DNA of 64,000 nt, taken from assembly GCA_036824055.1 (NCBI GenBank), contig DAITAW010000004.1:2114-66113 (forward strand). The letters are read 5' to 3'. Positions 1-8,993 of the stretch are shown piece after piece. The notes beneath the pieces are model-generated. The model searched no databases and had not been told where the DNA came from. It saw only the letters and a list, made by a program, of their open reading frames with translations. The stretch comes from Gaiellaceae bacterium (GTDB taxonomy: Bacteria; Actinomycetota; Thermoleophilia; Gaiellales; Gaiellaceae). A program made the translations under genes and the position numbers. Positions within the stretch are counted from its first letter, which is position 1. Every line of letters begins with the position of its first letter.

Positions 1-1017
1 TGCCTCGACGAGCCCGAGCAGGCGATCGCGGCGCTGGAGGAAGCGTTGGCGCTACGCATAAAGATCAGTGGCCCAGCCGACCGCGAGACACTCCGTGTCA
101 AGGACGCGCTCGCGACCGTCTTTCGGTCGCAGCATCGACTCGACGAAGCAGTGCGATTGCAGGAGGAGATCTTGGCTGCCATCGACGGCCGTCCCGAGCG
201 GAGCATGGTTACGCTTCGGGCGTTGAATGCCCTTGCCGCTCTGCGCCATGAGCAGGGGGAGCTCGCTGAAGCGCGGTCGTTGTTCGGGCGGGTCGTAGCT
301 GCGCGGCGAGAGCGTTTCGGCGACGAGCACCCACTGACCTTGACCGCCCTCAACAATCTCGGCCAGGTCCTGCGCACGCTCAACGATCGCAAGGCGTTGC
401 GGGCATTGAACGAGGAGGTGCTCGCAGCGACCAACGCGCGAGCTGGGGGCGAACATCCAAACACGCTGGCGGCGATGACCAACCTCGCCTTGGTGTTGGC
501 CGACGAGGGTGAGCTGGAGCAAGCGCTCGACCTGCATGGGCGTGTTCTTGGCGTCCGCCGCCGGCGTCTCGGTGACGGCCACCGCTCGACGCTGACCGCG
601 ATGAACAACGTCGGTGATGTGCTGCGCAAGCTCGGCCGTCGCGACGAGGCGCGATCTTTGCTCGAGGAGGCGGCGCGCGGCCTCGCCGGGTTGCTCGGCG
701 ACGACCATCCCGACACGTTGACCGTCCGACTGAATCTGGCCAAGCTGCTCGACGAGCAAGGCGATAGCGACGCAGCGATAGCTATCGCGCGCGCGGTGTT
801 GACCGCGCGCCGCAAAGTCGACGGCGAGACTCACCCGCGCACACTGGCGGCAATCGGCAACTTGGCGGCCATGCTCGAGACAGCGGGCGCCCGCGCTGAG
901 GCCGCCGACTTGTTCAGCGCGATGCGCCGCAACGCGGAGGAAGCACTCGGCGCCGGGCACCCGCTGACGGCGGCAGCCGTCCGGGGCCAGGTGCGGCTCA
1001 GTGCCAACAGTGACTGA
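1..1017 (+). CDS. TPR-repeat protein, C-terminal part (5' end lies outside the window)
   Basis: Frame 1 is open from nt 1, with no stop before the listed ATG at 46. At least 7 tandem units of about 42 aa carry the recurring pattern G(D/E)xHPxTLxxxxNLAxxLxxxGxxxEA, typical of TPR_10/TPR_12-type repeats. Stop at 1015-1017. Confidence 0.8.
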   Translation, partial: CLDEPEQAIAALEEALALRIKISGPADRETLRVKDALATVFRSQHRLDEAVRLQEEILAAIDGRPERSMVTLRALNALAALRHEQGELAEARSLFGRVVAARRERFGDEHPLTLTALNNLGQVLRTLNDRKALRALNEEVLAATNARAGGEHPNTLAAMTNLALVLADEGELEQALDLHGRVLGVRRRRLGDGHRSTLTAMNNVGDVLRKLGRRDEARSLLEEAARGLAGLLGDDHPDTLTVRLNLAKLLDEQGDSDAAIAIARAVLTARRKVDGETHPRTLAAIGNLAAMLETAGARAEAADLFSAMRRNAEEALGAGHPLTAAAVRGQVRLSANSD

Positions 1018-1090
1018 CTCGGCTGCGCGCCGTGGCGTTGCGGCGTGAGTCGAGGTCTGCTCACCTTCGTCTCTGACTCCGCCGTCGCCC

Positions 1091-1462
1091 ATGCCGTTGC
1101 GGACTGCGCTTAGAGCTGCCCTTCCGCTGCCATTTGCGCGCGAGTGGATTGCCGGTTCAAGCGTTCGAGGTGCGGCCGAGGATCTTTTCCGCCGTGCGAC
1201 TCGGGACGGGCTCGATGGGCTGAGCCTGACTGAGCGGCGAGGACACCTGTCACCGGTGACCGGCGCCGTTGCCGAAGCGATCGCCGCCCGTGTGCTCGAC
1301 GAGGCTGGGTTCAGAGTCTTCGCGCGGCTGACCGAGTCGGGGGTGCGCGGAGTCGATCTATTGTTGTTGAGCCCCGAGGAGCGCGTGCTCGTGCTCGAGG
1401 TCAAAGGGACGCTGCGGGCGGGACACTGCCGCGGCTCGGTCGCTCAAGGCTTAGCCAGATGA
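1091..1462 (+). CDS. Hypothetical small protein with a PD-(D/E)xK nuclease-like motif
   Basis: The segment GVDLLLLSPEERVLVLEVKGT has the D...(E)xK strand-strand signature of restriction-endonuclease-fold proteins (YraN/UPF0102-like). Start and C-terminus are uncertain, and the 3' end runs into a decayed gene on the other strand. Confidence 0.4.
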   Translation: MPLRTALRAALPLPFAREWIAGSSVRGAAEDLFRRATRDGLDGLSLTERRGHLSPVTGAVAEAIAARVLDEAGFRVFARLTESGVRGVDLLLLSPEERVLVLEVKGTLRAGHCRGSVAQGLAR

Positions 1463-1608
1463 GCGCGGCTCTTGCGCGACTTTCGTAGACGTGCCGGTCG
1501 GCCAGCTGCGCACGCAGAGGTTCTGGTCGATCCACGGCTTAGTCGGCGTTCGCCTTACGTCACACCCGACGGGCCTCCTGTTCGAAACCGAGCTTGGAGG
1601 CGGAGCCG

Positions 1609-1913
1609 TCACGGTGCGGCAAATGAGCGCCCCGGCGGTCAGCCCGAGGGCGAAGGCGGCGTCGCCGATCGCCACGATGCCGCGTTCGTCGAACACTCCT
1701 GGCGTGAATCGGTTCATGTTGACGCGGTGGAGGGGGCTTGACCGCGAGGTGATCATGAGGCTGCACAGTCCGGCGACGGCGATGCCGGCAAGCCCGAGTA
1801 GTGCGACCTTGACGGCTAGCCAGCGGGTGCGGATGACGCTCTGCGTCCAGGCGAGGCCGGTAGGTGCCGGCCTCGAGTTCGCGGGCGACCAGCACGACAA
1901 GTTTGCGAGGCAG
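1609..1913 (-). pseudogene. Fragment of an ABC-2-type transporter permease (5'-truncated and frameshifted)
   Basis: Two minus-strand frames join into one recognisable permease segment. One frame reads LPRKLVVLVARELEAGTYR (open only from 1913). After a 1-nt shift near 1856-1859, the other reads (G)LAWTQSVIRTRWLAVKVALLGLAGIAVAGL...NMNRFTPGVFDERGIVAIGDAAFALGLTAGAL. The hydrophobic pattern is lost after about 1609. The family assignment is from memory of actinobacterial ABC-2 permeases. Confidence 0.45.
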
Positions 1914-2184
1914 TTAGGACGCGGCGCGGACCGTCATCGGTGGCGGCAGGTTGGCGACCTCGAGGCCGACGATCTGACAACGGATTCGGGGTCCATCAAG
2001 ATGATCTTGCTTCTCCTCGCCGCGCTCTGACTTGGATTTCACTGCCCCGCGGGTCGTCAATCTGTGGCGCTTCCGCGATTTTGAGGGTCAGGTCAATATT
2101 TGCCCTGACGCGCTAATGACAATAGGCGATTCGCCCAGGAAAATCTCTTTGAGTCCGCACGGTCCATGGGATAGCGTACATTAG

Positions 2185-2200
2185 TCGAACCTACGTTCGT
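2185..2200. promoter_or_regulatory. LexA/SOS (Cheo) box candidate 1: TCGAAC-CTAC-GTTCGT
   Basis: Matches 11/12 positions of the actinobacterial LexA consensus TCGAAC-N4-GTTCGA. A TATGAT -10-like hexamer follows directly at 2202-2207. Confidence 0.5.
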
Positions 2201-2261
2201 GTATGATCTGCGGTGACTGGAGTTACCGGAGAGCCTGTTAGTACCGGCTAGGCCGGTCCGT

Positions 2262-2277
2262 TAGAACATATGTTCGA
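2262..2277. promoter_or_regulatory. LexA/SOS (Cheo) box candidate 2: TAGAAC-ATAT-GTTCGA
   Basis: GAACATATGTTC is a perfect 12-bp palindrome and matches 11/12 positions of TCGAAC-N4-GTTCGA. It lies 18 nt upstream of the ATG at 2295, just before the AAGGAAG Shine-Dalgarno. Confidence 0.5.
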
Positions 2278-2294
2278 GAGAAAGGAAGTCTGAG

Positions 2295-2534
2295 ATGAGT
2301 AATCAGCGGCACGTAACCAAGGACGGCGACGACTGGGTGGTTAGGAAGCCAGGCGCAGAGCGCGCAAGCTCTCGCCATGGCACCCAGCGTCAGGCTGATC
2401 AGCGCGCCGCGGAGATCTTGGGCAACAGCGGCGGCGGCGAGCGGGTCACCCACGGCTTCGATGGGCAGATCCGCAGCAAGGACACGATCGCGCCTGGCAA
2501 CGACCCCAACCCGCCCAGGGACAAGGAGCACTAG
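2295..2534 (+). CDS. DUF2188-family small protein
   Basis: 79 aa. The pattern HVTKDGDDWVVRKPGAERASSRHGTQRQADQRAAEIL...ERVTHGFDGQIRSKDTIAPGNDPNPPRD matches the DUF2188 pattern (GW-V-k-Ga-Ras...tq-eA...A...HgrDG-Ir..dsyg.DP.PP.D). AAGGAAG SD lies 7 nt upstream of the ATG. Confidence 0.7.
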   Translation: MSNQRHVTKDGDDWVVRKPGAERASSRHGTQRQADQRAAEILGNSGGGERVTHGFDGQIRSKDTIAPGNDPNPPRDKEH

Positions 2535-2641
2535 CTGAGTCGAGCGAGACGCTCGCCAAGGCCACGACGCCACTCAGGGGCGCCAGTTGCGTTGGGTCGT
2601 GACGCAAAACCTCGTACTTGTATCAGGAGAAAGAACGGTAA

Positions 2642-3034
2642 ATGGCGCGGCGTCCCAGAGCATTCATCAGCTTCGATTACGACTACGACCTCGACCTGCG
2701 GAATCTGCTCGTCGGGCAGGCTCGCCACGCAGACACACCGTTCGAGATCGCCGACTGGTCGGTCAGAGAGCGACAGCTTGGCGACTGGAAGGCGAAGGTT
2801 CGTCGGCGTATTCGCGCGGTCGACGTGGTCATTGTTCTTTGCGGTCATCACACGGACGACGCGTCAGGCGTCAGCGAAGAGATCAAGCTCGCCCGTGCCG
2901 AGCGGAAGCCGTATTTCCTGCTTGCAGGTCGCAAGAGTGGGACGGTCAGAAAGCCACGGGCCGCCAGGCCGACCGACAAGGTCTACAGGTGGACGTGGGA
3001 CAACCTGAAGAAGTTGATCCATGGCCGTCGCTAA
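2642..3034 (+). CDS. TIR-like domain protein (DUF1863 / ThsB-like), copy A
   Basis: 130 aa. N-terminal AFISFDYDYD, central VDVVIVLCGHHTDDASGVSEEIKLA and KPYFLL reproduce the strand/helix pattern of MTH538-type TIR-like domains. AGGAGAAAG SD lies upstream. Confidence 0.6.
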   Translation: MARRPRAFISFDYDYDLDLRNLLVGQARHADTPFEIADWSVRERQLGDWKAKVRRRIRAVDVVIVLCGHHTDDASGVSEEIKLARAERKPYFLLAGRKSGTVRKPRAARPTDKVYRWTWDNLKKLIHGRR

Positions 3035-3072
3035 CCCGCCTGCCGACGGAGAGCTTCGGATGAGGAGGAAGA

Positions 3073-3450
3073 ATGGCCCGTGCGTTCATCAGCTTTGAAA
3101 TGGAGGATCGCTGGGCCAGGGAGTTCCTGGTTCAGCACGCCCACGACAAGGACACGAGCATTGACTTCACGGACTACTCCCTGCACGAGCCCTTTGACGA
3201 GAAGTGGAAGACGAACTGCAAGACGCGGATCAACCAGACGAAAGGCACTATCGTCATGGTCGGCCCGAATGCGGCGAAGTCTGAAGCGGTGCTTTGGGAG
3301 ATTGCTGAGACCAACCGCCAGGGCCATCCGATCTTCGGGATCCAGACCCGTAACGAGAAGACTCATCCGATCCCGCAGGGCCTGCCGTCGTCCCGCGTCA
3401 TCCGTTGGGACTTCGATGCAATCGTCAAAGAGCTGAACCGGTGGACGTAG
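3073..3450 (+). CDS. TIR-like domain protein (DUF1863 / ThsB-like), copy B
   Basis: 125 aa. AFISFEMEDRW, GTIVMVGPNAAKSEAVLWEIAETNRQGHPIFGI (the WEI motif carries the candidate catalytic Glu). GAGGAGGAAG SD lies directly upstream, 38 nt after copy A. Confidence 0.65.
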   Translation: MARAFISFEMEDRWAREFLVQHAHDKDTSIDFTDYSLHEPFDEKWKTNCKTRINQTKGTIVMVGPNAAKSEAVLWEIAETNRQGHPIFGIQTRNEKTHPIPQGLPSSRVIRWDFDAIVKELNRWT

Positions 3451-4404
3451 TTGAAGCGCGCACTACTCATCGGCATCGATCAGTACGACAACTTCAACAA
3501 CCTCGCTGGATGCGTCAACGACGCCGATGCCCTCGAGCCGCTCATCAGTCGCAACGAAGACGACAGTCTGAACTTCGAGTGCCAGAAACGAACCAGCGCC
3601 ACTGGCGGCGTCACCCGTGACGCGCTGCTCGGCGACCTTGAGGCTCTTTTCGGCGGAGGAGCAGACATCGCTGTGTTGTACTTCGCCGGCCACGGCGACG
3701 GCGTCCCGAACGACGTGGTGCTGATGACCGTGGACGGGACGAACAACACACCCGGAATCCCGTTTTCGGAAGTGATGACGAAGGTGGTCAACTCTCAGGT
3801 GGGCGAAGTGATCGTCCTCCTCGACTGCTGTTTTTCGGGTGCCGCCGGTGGAATCCCGCAGCTTGGAACGGCCGCCTCGGCCCTGCGCCCAGGGGTATCG
3901 ATCTTGATGGCCAGTCGTGGCGACCAGACGGCCGCCGAAACGGGCGAAGGGCGGGGGTTGTTCTCGACATACCTCTCTGGCGCTCTCGAAGGCGGCGCGG
4001 CCGACGTGCGAGGCAAGGTCACGCTAGCCGGCCTGTACTCGTATCTCGACGAGTCATTCGGCGCCTGGGATCAACGACCGGTGTTCAAGACGAACGTTGA
4101 CCGCCTGCACGAGATCAGGGGGTGCATCCCGACCTTGCCGCCATCTGAGTTGCGCCAGATCAATGCACTGTTTCCGGCCGTTGACCATGTGTTCTCCCTC
4201 GACCCGTCTTACGAAGACACGGTCGAAGATCATGATCCTGAGCACGCGAAGGTCTTCAAAGTCCTGCAGCGGTACCGCTACAGCAAGCTCGTCGACCCAA
4301 TCGACGAGGAGTACATGTATTACGCCGCCGTCAACAGCACCGCTTGCCAGCTCACGCCTCTTGGACGTCACTACTGGCATATGGCAAGTGAAGGCCGCCT
4401 GTGA
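3451..4404 (+). CDS. Caspase-like (peptidase C14 family) protease with a C-terminal extension of about 100 aa
   Basis: 317 aa. KRALLIGIDQY...NLAGCVNDA, His in VLYFAGHGDG (His81, nt 3691-3693) and Cys in VLLDCCFSG (Cys127, nt 3829-3831) form the caspase/metacaspase His-Cys dyad context. The TTG start abuts the TAG stop of the preceding gene. Confidence 0.8.
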   Translation: MKRALLIGIDQYDNFNNLAGCVNDADALEPLISRNEDDSLNFECQKRTSATGGVTRDALLGDLEALFGGGADIAVLYFAGHGDGVPNDVVLMTVDGTNNTPGIPFSEVMTKVVNSQVGEVIVLLDCCFSGAAGGIPQLGTAASALRPGVSILMASRGDQTAAETGEGRGLFSTYLSGALEGGAADVRGKVTLAGLYSYLDESFGAWDQRPVFKTNVDRLHEIRGCIPTLPPSELRQINALFPAVDHVFSLDPSYEDTVEDHDPEHAKVFKVLQRYRYSKLVDPIDEEYMYYAAVNSTACQLTPLGRHYWHMASEGRL

Positions 4405-4877
4405 CACGCATCGGCGCAACCGGTCATCAGGAGTTGCCTGTCGAGGCCGGCCCGTACATCCTCGAGCACGTCCGAGGCATCCTCTCCGGCTGCAGTGCGC
4501 CGCTTCGCGCTGTGACCGCCCTCGCCGCAGGCGCTGACCAGCTCGTAGCCCGCGAGGTCCTGCGTAACGGCGGCAGCCTGTATGCGATCGTCCCGGCAGT
4601 TGGCTACGAGGGCACCTTCACGGGGGAGGACTTGCGCGAATACGAGTATTTGCTTGCGCAGGCAGACCAGTTGACACGGCTCGACTTTCCCGAGCCGTCC
4701 GAGCACGCGTACTGGGCTGCCGGCAAGACCATGGTCGACAACTGCGACGTCCTCGTGGCCATTTGGGATGGCGAGCCCGCGCGCGGTCTGGGCGGAACCG
4801 GCGACGTGGTCGCCTACGCCGAAACCAGCAGCAAAGACGTACGTGTGATTTGGCCCGATGGGGTCGTGCGCGAATGA
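4401..4877 (+). CDS. Free-standing SLOG (SMF/DprA-LOG) superfamily domain protein
   Basis: 158 aa. GATGHQ..., ALAAGADQLVAREVL (DprA-like GxD helix) and VLVAIWDGEPARGLGGTGDVVAYA (LOG-like GGxGT motif). The GTG start overlaps the caspase stop (GTGA at 4401-4404). Confidence 0.55.
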   Translation: MTRIGATGHQELPVEAGPYILEHVRGILSGCSAPLRAVTALAAGADQLVAREVLRNGGSLYAIVPAVGYEGTFTGEDLREYEYLLAQADQLTRLDFPEPSEHAYWAAGKTMVDNCDVLVAIWDGEPARGLGGTGDVVAYAETSSKDVRVIWPDGVVRE

Positions 4878-4914
4878 TCCAGATCCAGCTACCGACAACC
4901 CGAGGAGGTGTGCC

Positions 4915-5466
4915 GTGGCCTATGTGACCTTGTCCGAAGCCCGCAGCGCTGCCGCGACTCGTTGGGTGACCAAGTCGCTGGCCGAGTCGGCCTTACGCAC
5001 AGCCGCGGCTGCCTCGACGAGCACCGATTACGACATCTTCTTGTCTCATTCAAGGGAGGATGCGCAGGTGATCGCCGGCGTAAAGACGCTGCTCGAGCAG
5101 GAAGGCGCGAGCGTCTATGTGTACTGGGCGGAAGAGAACCAGGTTGCACCCGTTACGGCATCAACCGCCGCCAAGCTGCGCGTGCGCATGAACCACTGCC
5201 GTTCGTTGATCTACGCCAGCTCGGAAGCATCGCCGCAGTCGAAGTGGATGCCGTGGGAGCTTGGCTATTTCGACGGACGAAAGCCCGGACATGTCGCGAT
5301 CATGCCGCTGCCATCGTCGAGTACCTTCACTGGGCAGGAGTACCTCGGTTTGTACCCGAACGTCGAGCGAGTATCGTTCCAGTCCGGACGACGCGGCCTT
5401 GCCGTCCGGAACCCGGCCACTACGAAGGCTCTGTCGAGCTTCATGCGTGAAGGGCTGAGCTTGTAG
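4915..5466 (+). CDS. Canonical TIR-domain protein
   Basis: YDIFLSHSREDAQ..., SLIYASSEASPQSKWMPWELGYFDG (candidate catalytic Glu at nt 5257-5259). I prefer the GTG at 4915 because GAGGAGG lies at 4902-4908. The track ATG at 4858 would overlap the SLOG gene by 20 nt. Confidence 0.8.
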   Translation: MAYVTLSEARSAAATRWVTKSLAESALRTAAAASTSTDYDIFLSHSREDAQVIAGVKTLLEQEGASVYVYWAEENQVAPVTASTAAKLRVRMNHCRSLIYASSEASPQSKWMPWELGYFDGRKPGHVAIMPLPSSSTFTGQEYLGLYPNVERVSFQSGRRGLAVRNPATTKALSSFMREGLSL

Positions 5467-5736
5467 TCCGATGGCTGCTGGCAAGAGCGTCGACCCGGAG
5501 CCGATGTCCACGCCGTGGACGCTTAGTGGGCGTCGAAGATGTCCTCCGCCGCCGAGCGCGGAGCAACAGAAACAGCCGCTAAGCACGAAATAAGTTCAAG
5601 CCCTCTGAGGGAGTCGAGCGTAACTACCGTTCTCACAAGCGCCGACAGCCCCTATGACCTCCTGGCTGCGTACCAGGCGCGGGCGTAATTTGCTTAAAGT
5701 GTGAGCTGAAGACTCCAGTCAACACGCTTCGCAAGT

Positions 5737-7503
5737 TTGCCCAAGGACACCTTTCCCGAGATCAATTCACTGTCGTGGCGGCAGGTGAGCTTGCTGACCC
5801 GGACTCTCGAAAAGCACCGGGAACTCTTACAGGCGGGTCATGAGGACGCGCGACGTGCGGCGCTTCTTGGTTCCCGACCCGCGTACGTCGTCGACTTTCA
5901 ACTCATCGAGGGCTACGTCTTTCCAATGGATGGTCCTCCGGAATGGAACGTTGAGCTTGGTTACTTATTCGGGCTGGGTCAAACGACTTTTGTCATTGGA
6001 CCCGGCACTCAGGTCGAGATTGCACGATTTCTCGAGTCTCTCGGCTTCTATCAGGACGAAGATGGGTTGGTCCATCAGGTGAAACCCAAATGGCGGCCGG
6101 GGCGGTCCAGTGGCGCCGCCGCGGAAGACGCGACAGCGTTGGCCCTCGATCGGCTCTCTCATCTGCTGAGCCAGAGCAACTTTGTTACCTATGACGAGCT
6201 CGTTGGCGATTCGACTGCGGAACTCGACGGAGACGGCTTCGACCAGGACGCGTATCGAACGGCGCTGGCAATACTCGAAGGGACTCCGCTGCGAAGAAAG
6301 GCATCGAGTTCTGCTAACAGAGCCGACGCTCTGAACTGGGCAACAGTGATTCAGCTCCGACGCGACCCGGCAAGAGATCGACAGATTTATCCATATCTTC
6401 TGACGGCCACACGCCCTCTTCTCGACGAGACTCTCTGGTCAGATGCGAGCAGATCGCCGGTGTCGCGTGCGCCAGCGGAAGCAATCTTCTCCGAGGTGCT
6501 ACTTGCGAGCTTTGCGAGGCCTGCCGAGGCAGCAGACCACACGGTAGAGATGGCCTTCGAGACCGCACGGCTCGAGCGCGACTTAAGGAAGAGTCCTGCC
6601 TATCGAGACCCTGACAAATTTTCTGAGGAGGCGGATTGGGAGCGAGCCCTGGAGCACGATCGCATAAGTCCTCGGCTGAGAGGCGAGCTTTCGGAGATGG
6701 CACGCTTCACGACGGATCCGATCGTCATTGAAACTCAGCGCATCTATTCTGCTGCCTCGCTCACCGCGAGTAGCACCTTTCAACAGCGTGGTATCAGCTC
6801 TGAGTCTTCTATCCTCGAGTCCCCACAGAGGCTTTTCGACCTGATCAATGGAATTAACGCGGCGTTAGTGGCCACCGCCGGCGGTCCGTCACCGATGGCC
6901 GACTTATGGAAATCGTTGCTGGAGGTCGAAGAAAAGACTGCAACGGGGTATCTGAGCTACTCAGTGGTGGATCGCGTACGGAACGATGAGACATATAGCT
7001 ACCTAGTTGCCGAAGTGCATTCGCCTCAGACGAGCGACACTGACGACGACGCGAGTCTCATCGTTTCCCGCTGGCGAAGTTCGCTTGACGGGGAAGCGAT
7101 CCTAGCTACGTTTTCTGACGCCTTCTCGCAAGCGAACGCCGAAACCGTGGACGTTCTCGTCGGAACTCCTATGGGGGTTGCCGAATTCGACGCGGATATT
7201 CCACTCACCTTGCTTGAGATTGTCAGCGCTTGCGAAAAAGCAGGGGCGTTCGGGAGGAGTGAAGTCGGCGTGCCCGCGATTAACTGGGTGAGGCTGGCGG
7301 CACCACCGTTTGAACTCTTCGCGGAGCTCACTGCAAGACCGCCGCGAACTCCCTTGATCGGTGTTTTCGCAAGCCGGTTCGATGAACCCCGGCTAGGCGA
7401 CCTCTTTCGACGTACGTCAGGGAGATATCTCTTCGCGGCTTGGCTTGAGCGAGCACTAGAAGACATCGAGCGACGTACGATGCAAGACCGAGTTGTCGCC
7501 TGA
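5737..7503 (+). CDS. Hypothetical protein, 588 aa, no recognisable domain
   Basis: A long ORF with a balanced, protein-like composition in a visibly AT-richer stretch. The opposing ORFs are Ser/Arg-rich shadows. The TTG start is uncertain. Confidence 0.6.
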   Translation: MPKDTFPEINSLSWRQVSLLTRTLEKHRELLQAGHEDARRAALLGSRPAYVVDFQLIEGYVFPMDGPPEWNVELGYLFGLGQTTFVIGPGTQVEIARFLESLGFYQDEDGLVHQVKPKWRPGRSSGAAAEDATALALDRLSHLLSQSNFVTYDELVGDSTAELDGDGFDQDAYRTALAILEGTPLRRKASSSANRADALNWATVIQLRRDPARDRQIYPYLLTATRPLLDETLWSDASRSPVSRAPAEAIFSEVLLASFARPAEAADHTVEMAFETARLERDLRKSPAYRDPDKFSEEADWERALEHDRISPRLRGELSEMARFTTDPIVIETQRIYSAASLTASSTFQQRGISSESSILESPQRLFDLINGINAALVATAGGPSPMADLWKSLLEVEEKTATGYLSYSVVDRVRNDETYSYLVAEVHSPQTSDTDDDASLIVSRWRSSLDGEAILATFSDAFSQANAETVDVLVGTPMGVAEFDADIPLTLLEIVSACEKAGAFGRSEVGVPAINWVRLAAPPFELFAELTARPPRTPLIGVFASRFDEPRLGDLFRRTSGRYLFAAWLERALEDIERRTMQDRVVA

Positions 7504-7505
7504 TT

Positions 7506-8030
7506 ATGGCTGTACGCTTTAAGGGGTTTCTCTCGAAACTGGCCCCGGAACGAAGTCGCGCAGCACGGGTGTTGGCGAGCCGGGACGAGGAAACCGTCGG
7601 CTACTGGACCTTGCCCGAGCACCACGGCGTGGAGATTGCCTTCTTCCTCCAATTCCATGATTCGGACGATCAGGCCCTTGCCAAGCGTAAAGCGCGGATT
7701 CGCGTTGCGTACCGGAACTTTCAGCCAGAGACACTCCATTTCAAACGACGCATCGGATCGTCGGGGTCGACTGTTGAGGACTACAAGGAGGATGACGAGC
7801 TGATCATTTGGGCGGCCAGGAACGATGACGATCGGGCCCCCTATGTCGAGCGGATCCTCGACGACGCTGTTGGCGTACGAAAGCGTCCGGACCGTTCTGA
7901 ACTTCAGGCGAAGATTGAATTTACAGAGCCTCAGCAGTACAGAGTATTGGGCGTCGACGAGTTCAGGTTCGCCTTTCCAGACGGAGGCAATGCCAAGTGC
8001 GTGTGTTGCTTGCAGTTTTTCCGTATCTAG
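7506..8030 (+). CDS. Hypothetical protein, 174 aa
   Basis: ATG lies 2 nt after the TGA of the 588-aa gene (tgattATG), which suggests coupling. The composition is protein-like. No known motif. Confidence 0.55.
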   Translation: MAVRFKGFLSKLAPERSRAARVLASRDEETVGYWTLPEHHGVEIAFFLQFHDSDDQALAKRKARIRVAYRNFQPETLHFKRRIGSSGSTVEDYKEDDELIIWAARNDDDRAPYVERILDDAVGVRKRPDRSELQAKIEFTEPQQYRVLGVDEFRFAFPDGGNAKCVCCLQFFRI

Positions 8031-8398
8031 CATCCCTCGCCGTGTACCTGTTCAACGCGCGTGATCTCTTCCTGAACACACGCCCGCCGCCGCATTGGAC
8101 TTGGCGGCTCTCAGCGCCGGTGATGATCGCGGGCCTGACCCCTCTTGCTCTGGCCTCGAAGACCTCGGCCGTATCGAGTGGGGAGCAGAACCTTCTATTG
8201 CTAGCTCCCGCCTTGGGAGTGATGTATGCGGTCCTCGCGTTTGGTCGCTTCCGAGAGAAGGATTTTCTGGCGCTACATCGCCCGTTTACGTTCTTCGATA
8301 GGGAGATCAAGTTTCTGTCGCGTCGCCGCTTTTGGATCGGCCTAGGAGCCTTGGTGATCGCCTACGCGGCCGCGGCGAACATCTATGTGAGCGCATAA
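7997..8398 (+). CDS. Hypothetical small integral membrane protein (3-4 predicted TM segments)
   Basis: Hydrophobic stretches LLAVFPYLASLAVYLF, APVMIAGLTPLALA, LLLLAPALGVMYAVLAF and WIGLGALVIAYAAAANIYV. The GTG start overlaps the preceding gene by 34 nt. Confidence 0.5.
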   Translation: MRVLLAVFPYLASLAVYLFNARDLFLNTRPPPHWTWRLSAPVMIAGLTPLALASKTSAVSSGEQNLLLLAPALGVMYAVLAFGRFREKDFLALHRPFTFFDREIKFLSRRRFWIGLGALVIAYAAAANIYVSA

Positions 8399-8630
8399 TG
8401 GCTCGTCTGGCCTAATTGACCGCTGGTGTCCAAAAAGGAGGCCTTTGGTGAGGTGGACCACGAGAGCGGTGGACGTGCTAATCAGCGGGCAAGAAGATCT
8501 GCGCGCCTTGGCCGTTTGCGAATCGCCGTCCCGTTAAGAATCCGTCGCGGGGCGCGAAATCCGCGAAATTCTCCCGTTAAGCGGTCGGGCCTAGCGTCAA
8601 CCCCGCTCGTGCGCTGGGCTGCGAAGTTGA

Positions 8631-8993
8631 AACCGAACCCTGCTGGCGCGCATCCGCGCCGTGCTGCGGCGGACGTCGCCGGCGGCGCACGAGGTCCTGC
8701 GGGCGGGCCCGATCGCCGCGGACCTTGCGACGAGGTGCGTGACCGTCGACGGCGTGCCGGTCACTCTCGCCGGGAAGGAGTACGAGCTCCTGCTCAAGCT
8801 GATGACCGATCCGACGAGGGTGTTCACGAAGGAGCACCTGCTCAGGGAGGTCTGGGACTTCAGGTCACTCGGCCGGACGAGGACGCTGGACTCGCACGCG
8901 TCGCGACTCCGACGGAAGCTCAGCGCCGCCGCGAACGAGGGGCCCTTCGTGCTGAACGTCTGGGGGGTGGGCTACCGGCTCCTCGGAGGATAA
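8631..8993 (+). pseudogene. OmpR/PhoB-type response-regulator remnant: only linker and winged-helix DNA-binding domain
   Basis: The frame opens right after a TGA at 8628-8630. It reads NRTLLARIRAVLRRTS...LRAGPIAADLATRCVTVDGVPVTLAGKEYELLLKLM...VFTKEHLLREVWD...TRTLDSHASRLRRKL...NVWGVGYRL, a Trans_reg_C domain. No receiver domain lies upstream. A GTG at 8661 could still allow expression of a stand-alone DNA-binding protein. Confidence 0.6.

Follow-up and report, generated by a model that had tools for sequence, protein, structure and literature searches.

Candidate LexA operators upstream of a defence-associated DUF2188 gene and a type IV Thoeris-like operon in an uncultured Gaiellaceae bacterium

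Is a small defence-associated gene in an uncultured Gaiellaceae bacterium switched on by DNA damage, and does the TIR/caspase operon behind it follow? The question is raised by a 64,000-nt stretch of DNA (hereafter the window; C82:2114-66113 of the host assembly), near the left end of which two palindromes precede a gene of the DUF2188 family. The host is represented by a Gaiellaceae MAG (Thermoleophilia) of 3.17 Mb in 221 contigs, with 66.8% GC and 89% completeness. An original prediction took the palindromes for SOS (Cheo) boxes of the Gram-positive/actinobacterial type, TCGAAC-N4-GTTCGA, which is defined for the LexA proteins of Mycobacterium tuberculosis and Bacillus subtilis. What we show by computation is the motif, the regulon of the host and how far the boxes are conserved; from these we infer LexA binding, promoter positions and damage induction. 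The head of the locus comprises the following features.

2185-2200, no strand: LexA box 1 (distal), TCGAACCTACGTTCGT, from direct reading of the sequence and a position weight matrix (PWM)
2202-2207, + strand: -10-like hexamer TATGAT, seen in the sequence; putative distal promoter P1
2262-2277, no strand: LexA box 2 (proximal, predicted ancestral), TAGAACATATGTTCGA, from the PWM and alignment with homologous cassettes
2281-2288, + strand: Shine-Dalgarno-like AAAGGAAG, 6 nt ahead of the DUF2188 start codon (ATG)
2295-2534, + strand: DUF2188 gene, 79 aa; Pfam PF09954, PADLOC candidate PDC-S16, PHROG 3220 (phrog_3220)

The coordinates originally given for both palindromes, TCGAACCTACGTTCGT at 2185-2200 and TAGAACATATGTTCGA at 2262-2277, hold. 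Each has the GAAC-N4-GTTC core and TC/GA flanks of a Gram-positive/actinobacterial LexA operator and matches 11 of the 12 consensus positions, as had been claimed. Box 1 ends 1 nt 5' of TATGAT, 17 nt separate the end of box 2 from the ATG at 2295, and the leader is AT-richer than the genome (54% GC at 2000-2250 versus 67%). The boxes lie 77 bp apart, centre to centre. Box 2 aligns with boxes of homologous genes that directly follow a TAnnnT hexamer, so that both sites occupy putative promoter positions.

Whether these palindromes mean anything to the host depends on its own repressor. The host lexA gene (C181:8204-8827) encodes an intact LexA, with a DNA-binding domain scoring 89.5 bits and with the Ala-Gly cleavage site, the Ser and the Lys all present, and it carries TCGAACGTGTGTTCGC 18 nt 5' of its start. 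Further genes with the same motif in their promoter region, identified by NCBIfam, are uvrA, dinB, an imuB-like gene with two boxes, dnaE2, a Rv2578c-family radical-SAM gene and dprA, and two boxes also precede the gene for a 79-aa membrane and LysM protein resembling the YneA/ChiZ division inhibitors. The original prediction had named lexA and uvrA as genes in which to look for the motif, and both have it. No recA was found in the 89%-complete assembly, and its promoter is therefore absent from the regulon scan; the motif otherwise stands at lexA and at canonical SOS genes alongside an intact LexA. Read from the genome, the host LexA is predicted to use a motif of the TCGAAC-N4-GTTCGA type. 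The arrangement is that of the actinobacterial SOS system, with an identical palindrome placed over or beside the -10 and a lexA that would regulate itself through its box. Shared regulon members are uvrA, dinB, imuB/dnaE2, the Rv2578c-type radical-SAM gene and the YneA/ChiZ-like LysM division inhibitor. What differs is the target, DUF2188, and the host, an uncultured member of the Gaiellaceae with a previously undescribed regulon.

Several other sites of the host genome outside the window deserve mention in their own right. In the LysM-gene promoter (C81:5340-5640), one LexA box lies between a TTGACA -35 and a TACTCT -10, and another follows the -10; the protein of 79 aa is apparently leaderless, combines a single TM segment with a LysM domain (PF01476, E = 3e-9), and is a candidate SOS cell-division inhibitor of the YneA/ChiZ type. 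At C187:15117-17236 a LexA box, TCGAACATATGTTCGC (25.9 bits), lies between two divergent genes, one for a protein of 491 aa in which an IrrE/ImmA M78 peptidase domain is joined to a large, unassigned C-terminal part, the other HD/YfbR-like and 5'-deoxynucleotidase-like; this locus may be another SOS-controlled accessory module. Unusual candidate regulon members are a SigH-like sigma factor gene with an upstream box (C126:3989, 26.0 bits) and dnaB, with a box 27 nt upstream (C102:11944, 23.1 bits).

Given this regulon, we ranked the window's sites against the rest of the genome, using a PWM trained on eight canonical SOS sites of the host from which the window's own sites were left out. Box 2 scored 26.3 bits and ranked first in the 3.17 Mb; box 1 ranked 17th with 19.4 bits, a level similar to that of the weaker imuB box (18.9 bits), and owes its lower score to an atypical spacer, CTAC. 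Scores in the host genome fall off past about 18 sites. Ten first-order Markov random genomes scored with the same matrix served as a chance baseline: at 19.4 bits or more there were 17 real sites against a mean of 1.7 (range 0-4) per random genome, and at 26 bits or more 3 real sites against none. GAAC-N4-GTTC cores number only 56 across the genome, 9 of them with at most one mismatch. Within the 64-kb window, boxes 1 and 2 are the only sites at most one mismatch from TCGAAC-N4-GTTCGA; with up to two mismatches there were 21 sites against 5.1 expected.

Both sites could be chance matches or decayed, non-functional remnants. Nothing specific speaks for this beyond the baseline itself, which still yields about 1.7 sites of the box 1 level per random genome; the same baseline gives an estimate of about 1e-4 for such a site falling within 100 bp of box 2, in line with the original argument that two sites within 90 bp are improbable by chance. 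Since box 2 also tops the genome ranking and is conserved in orthologous promoters, we consider a chance origin highly improbable.

Four other Gaiellales/Thermoleophilia genomes and five metagenome contigs supplied the close homologues of the DUF2188 gene (71-85% identity) from which this conservation is read. All of them have one GAAC-N4-GTTC 9-60 nt before the start, in most cases directly after a TAnnnT hexamer (TAGTCT, TAGGCT, TACTAT, TATAGT, TATTCT, TAGGGT), and one further genome, G186, has a decayed site before DUF2188. With the window counted, the box is present in 8 of 9 distinct close DUF2188 cassettes, against a chance per locus that we estimate at about 0.002. In DNA alignments of these loci, homology is confined to the stretch from the -10/box to the stop codon, and for this reason we regard the -10, LexA box, ribosome-binding site and DUF2188 gene as a small self-contained cassette. 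Box 2, the site conserved in orthologous promoters, is the predicted ancestral operator of that cassette.

In relatives the cassette has an IS30 transposase or a phage-type integrase as neighbour and is usually solitary, with no TIR or caspase gene within 3 kb in the five metagenome homologues L113-L117. In one Thermoleophilia genome (L008/L022; G093:C1:1097812-1098043), the LexA-box DUF2188 copy sits directly after a phage-type integrase gene and is split over two frames, by a frameshift or an assembly indel. In another locus (L023:1959-3821; MAG Actinomycetota SVA bin5, JALZOQ010000212.1), a gene on the same strand, 180 nt upstream of a LexA-box DUF2188 cassette, encodes a protein of 620 aa whose N-terminal domain is a caspase (C14). 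We rejected the broader idea of SOS control for every actinobacterial DUF2188 gene, as a box is missing from most of the loci surveyed, 80 from genomes and 75 more distant ones from metagenomes. Since the majority of the other DUF2188 genes in actinobacteria are without an SOS box, the predicted LexA-box control of DUF2188 is lineage-specific.

The company of integrases and transposases, together with the strain-specific nature of the island, would also fit palindromes that are bound by the repressor of a mobile element (e.g., a CI- or ImmR-like protein) and not by the host LexA. However, no regulator gene lies next to the cassette in the window, and the same motif stands at the host lexA, uvrA and dinB promoters. 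We consider binding by such a repressor extremely unlikely.

Box 1 has a different history. No counterpart was found in the homologous cassettes by DNA alignment, and no homologue of 1900-2300 was found in the rest of the genome or in the retrieved loci, so that the origin of box 1 is without a source there. Since the minus-strand hexamer TAATGT (2183 to 2178) adjoins box 1 just as TATGAT does on the plus strand, and the adjoining minus-strand gene is a truncated ABC-2 permease remnant, box 1 might instead be the operator of a leftward promoter that is now a relic and takes no part in DUF2188 control; the missing counterpart in homologous cassettes would suit this. Against it, there is no intact minus-strand gene within about 300 nt, and the plus-strand layout of a box followed by a -10 recurs, both in L117, a homologue from a metagenome, where TGG and TATGAT follow the box, and at the radical-SAM gene of the host, where TATACT follows it. 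On balance we find a relic leftward promoter unlikely, and favour box 1 as an extra operator of the DUF2188 gene.

A second promoter may lie closer to the gene. The proximal -10 hexamers of the homologues (TAGTCT, TAGGCT, TACTAT) are not kept in the window, so a proximal promoter, P2, would depend on the TAGAAC half of box 2 also serving as its -10, which it may do. The host imuB promoter mirrors this, with TAGAAC separated from TTGACA by an 18-nt spacer. Two boxes occur at just three loci of the host genome: imuB, the LysM gene and DUF2188. Like the other two, the DUF2188 locus combines the promoter of a putatively harmful gene with two boxes no more than about 20-80 bp away, but its box spacing is 77 bp as compared to 17-22 bp at imuB and the LysM gene. 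Such double boxes are consistent with especially tight repression.

Taken together, both palindromes are probably operators of the host LexA, the cassette's own box 2 and an extra box 1, with damage induction of DUF2188; we hold this reading with good confidence, and regard partial read-through beyond DUF2188 as plausible. The claim of DNA-damage (SOS) control of DUF2188 thus gains support from the motif of the host regulon, and at the level of sequence it is well supported because the box is conserved before DUF2188 in 8 of 9 distinct close homologues. DUF2188 is supported as a new, conserved member of the LexA regulon in Gaiellales. We found no description of DUF2188 as a LexA target in the searched literature mentioning the family.

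The proposed course of events would be as follows. Box 2 would lie over the proximal promoter or transcription start of DUF2188, as part of a mobile cassette circulating in Gaiellales/Thermoleophilia, and box 1 would be an extra operator adjoining a second, upstream -10 (TATGAT); the two would give double repression, as at the host imuB and LysM-gene promoters. In the undamaged cell, LexA would cover both promoters and at box 2 would also stop transcripts that start at P1. RecA-coated single-stranded DNA, arising from damage or from the replication of a phage or prophage, would bring about LexA self-cleavage, upon which DUF2188 would be transcribed. Any read-through into the TIR/caspase operon would prime, but not trigger, an abortive-infection system.

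The predicted target itself is well defined as a family. The window protein matches nearly the full length of both profiles, PF09954 (E = 1.2e-16, 61 bits, profile positions 2-61 of 62) and PDC-S16 (E = 2e-19, 68 bits, positions 1-74 of 75), and can be assigned to DUF2188/PDC-S16 accordingly. The gene is an accessory one, carried by 15 of 201 Gaiellaceae genomes. Its AF2 model (pLDDT 85.6) has a beta-beta-beta-alpha-beta-beta fold, and conserved features are an invariant GGGE loop and a GNDPxPPxD tail. A PDB structure search with this model gave no significant match (best E = 0.04, TM at most 0.4), the sequence profile found no relative in the PDB, and a BFVD search matched uncharacterised phage proteins only. 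A HicB-like or antitoxin-like fold is hinted at by 3k6q, a non-significant structure match (TM 0.39), and by a mycobacteriophage 'antitoxin' annotation, and we do not claim it. The annotation belongs to the M. abscessus prophage prophiT48-1 (L111:2291-3225; Mycobacterium phage, OQ417964.1), where a DUF2188 domain forms the C-terminal part of a 197-aa 'antitoxin' encoded directly 3' of a BrnT-like toxin gene.

We then asked how far LexA control might extend beyond DUF2188. Downstream, all genes are on the same strand.

2535-2641, + strand: spacer between DUF2188 and the first TIR gene (TIR1), 107 nt; no recognisable terminator and no TANNNT hexamer
2642-3034, + strand: ThsB-TIR (Pfam/PADLOC)
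3073-3450, + strand: ThsB-TIR (Pfam/PADLOC)
3451-4404, + strand: caspase-like (C14) protease (PF00656, PADLOC caspase model)
4401-4877, + strand: 158-aa protein with no Pfam or PADLOC match
4858-5466, + strand: TIR (Pfam)
2642-5466, + strand: type IV Thoeris-like operon as a whole, by domain content; putatively co-transcribed with DUF2188

Three of these genes have PF08937 or PF13676 and one has PF00656, and PADLOC scored the ThsB model at 1e-57 and the caspase model at 3e-15. Type IV Thoeris consists of a ThsB TIR and a caspase-like protease (Rousset et al., 2025, as cited in bioRxiv 10.64898/2025.12.03.692087), and the same 2025 preprint lists DUF2188, adjacent to TIR genes, among untested putative Thoeris effectors (bioRxiv 10.64898/2025.12.03.692087). 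The window likewise has TIR and C14 caspase-like genes directly downstream, with DUF2188 beside a TIR gene as in the preprint. With a ThsB TIR and a C14 caspase-like protease in one operon, the locus has the gene content of type IV Thoeris, an assignment that we make here from its genes; N7-cADPR would be its signal.

Positions 1-8640 of the window, this operon among them, have no DNA match in 20 same-genus genomes, and synteny resumes at about 8640, inside a truncated response-regulator gene. Everything to the left of that point, a TPR protein included, is therefore strain-specific. At the right edge of this strain-specific island, a 33-nt stretch (window 8550-8582) is 91% identical to C187:13539-13571, about 2 kb from the putatively LexA-controlled M78/HD locus described above; it may represent a site of recombination or attachment, or else a small repeat element.

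One could suppose that LexA control arrived with the Thoeris operon. We rejected this, since homologous operons have no boxes and no caspase homologue was found in 200 other Gaiellaceae genomes. The three homologous TIR/caspase operons that we retrieved (L108-L110) have neither a GAAC-N4-GTTC nor a DUF2188 gene within 4-5 kb; in this the window differs from other type IV Thoeris operons examined, and SOS control is not a trait of the family among them. Caspase homologues numbered only four in 400 Actinomycetota. LexA control thus belongs to the DUF2188 cassette and not to Thoeris, given three homologous operons without a box, a rare caspase and a region 1-8640 without counterpart. The juxtaposition of the DUF2188 cassette and Thoeris is, as far as the compared genomes indicate, specific to this island.

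Whether transcripts cross the 107-nt spacer is the point on which control of the operon turns. The two stem-loops that the original prediction described at 2535-2577 and 2541-2555 are both there, without a U-tract and with a folding energy that does not exceed that of shuffled sequence (z = +0.5 to -1.8). Folding of the spacer as a whole gave z = +0.5 against shuffled sequences and its sub-hairpins z = -0.8 to -1.8, the lowest value being that of a 6-bp hairpin at 2541-2555. We found no U-tract terminator, TANNNT hexamer or sigma-70-like match in the spacer, and no Rfam element in the leader or the spacer, where folding z-scores were unremarkable. Actinobacterial terminators can be without U-tracts. 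The absence of TANNNT from the 146 nt examined is weakly informative because about one is expected there by chance; a homologous operon (L108) has TAGCAT about 35 nt upstream of its first gene.

From the lack of terminator or promoter signals in the 107 nt before TIR1, we propose at least partial co-induction of the operon by read-through. Read-through from the LexA-controlled promoter or promoters into the Thoeris-like operon is plausible, and we place it only just short of an even call. The LexA boxes may also be real and control DUF2188 alone, with the operon having its own unrecognised promoter in 2535-2641 or transcripts ending at the weak hairpins, in which case Thoeris would not be SOS-regulated. 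Such restriction would suit a cassette that is self-contained and usually solitary, homologous TIR/caspase operons that have neither boxes nor DUF2188, and a gap of 107 nt that is much larger than the 3-14 nt found where DUF2188 is operonic with a DUF1883-TIR gene; the 6-bp hairpin (z = -1.8) would offer an end point. It is harder to reconcile with a spacer that has no TANNNT, sigma-70-like match or U-tract terminator and folds no better than shuffled sequence, with genes that all share one strand, and with a second DUF2188-TIR-...-TIR-caspase array, in the Mycobacterium MAG L057, which suggests a functional link. We regard control of DUF2188 alone as a substantial possibility, somewhat below an even call. 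Even under the read-through that we propose, co-regulation could be an accident of juxtaposition, because homologous operons have no boxes and the cassette is normally alone. No description of SOS control of Thoeris was found in the searched literature covering both Thoeris and LexA.

To place the locus among its relatives, we surveyed 80 DUF2188 loci from many phyla. A TIR gene lies within 4 kb in 11 of the 80; in 7 of those 11, a DUF1883-TIR gene follows 3' of DUF2188 within about 300 nt, the gap being only 3-14 nt in five. The Mycobacterium locus (L057:4001-7723; Mycobacterium sp. MAG, JBPPMS010000001.1) has, all on one strand and in this order, genes for DUF2188, DUF1883-TIR, a multi-TM protein of 394 aa, a ThsB-like TIR protein and a caspase-like protein. 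It represents a second, independent DUF2188-headed TIR/caspase cluster, and no LexA box is present there.

An IrrE/ImmA-type M78 peptidase gene, often with an HTH gene, lies within 4 kb at 20 of the 80 loci and a WYL regulator gene at 4, and a LexA/S24 gene accompanies 3. Among the last, a Parcubacteria MAG (L064:2410-3331; VMFT01000037.1) has DUF2188 and a full-length lexA in divergent orientation, with an AT-rich spacer of 59 nt between them, the lexA product being 36% identical to the host LexA over 205 aa. Candidate lineage-appropriate boxes also precede DUF2188 in a Thermoflexaceae MAG, with AGAACGTTCGTTCT (AGAAC-N4-GTTCT) right after a TACCAT hexamer, and in Stappia, with an alphaproteobacterial-type GTTC-N7-GTTC.

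The M78, WYL and lexA neighbours agree with a published link between DUF2188 and CapH/CapP operons: Lau et al. described DUF2188 operons under the damage-responsive CapH/CapP pair (bioRxiv 10.1101/2022.04.27.489752). The logic proposed here is that of the CapH/CapP and CapW/BrxR WYL systems, in which a repressor is inactivated after DNA damage and a defence-linked operon is turned up, and DUF2188 is documented CapH/CapP cargo. However, the window has no dedicated regulator, and control is proposed to act in trans, by the chromosomal LexA through SOS boxes. No HTH, M78 or WYL domain was found in the ten window ORFs scanned between 46 and 8027. With neither an adjacent HTH and M78 pair nor a WYL gene, the locus resembles the CapH/CapP- or WYL-regulated class in its logic and is not a member of it.

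A wider and more speculative reading is that DUF2188 is a dedicated DNA-damage-gated immunity module, wired to the damage response several times independently. It would be a damage-inducible partner of TIR signalling (effector, sensor or buffer), and here a complete type IV Thoeris would have come directly under the host SOS repressor, with a second operator silencing toxic cargo. The wiring routes that we count are GAAC-N4-GTTC in Thermoleophilia, AGAAC-N4-GTTCT in Chloroflexota, GTTC-N7-GTTC in Alphaproteobacteria, a divergent lexA in Patescibacteria, HTH/M78 (CapH/CapP-like) pairs and WYL regulators. We offer this reading tentatively, as possible but less likely than not.

For the organism, these results give a first sequence-based view of the LexA regulon in an uncultured member of the Gaiellaceae, with about 18 sites that include repair, mutasome and LysM division-inhibitor-like genes. 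To this regulon they would add a defence-associated gene, DUF2188 (PDC-S16), a predicted Thoeris effector. If read-through is real, a TIR/caspase abortive-infection system would stand directly under the host LexA, with no dedicated regulator. For the family, an uncharacterised group of defence-associated proteins would be tied to the DNA-damage response by yet another route. The LexA boxes, the CapH/CapP link and the neighbouring regulators suggest that DUF2188 is needed specifically under DNA damage or phage replication, which offers a handle on its function.
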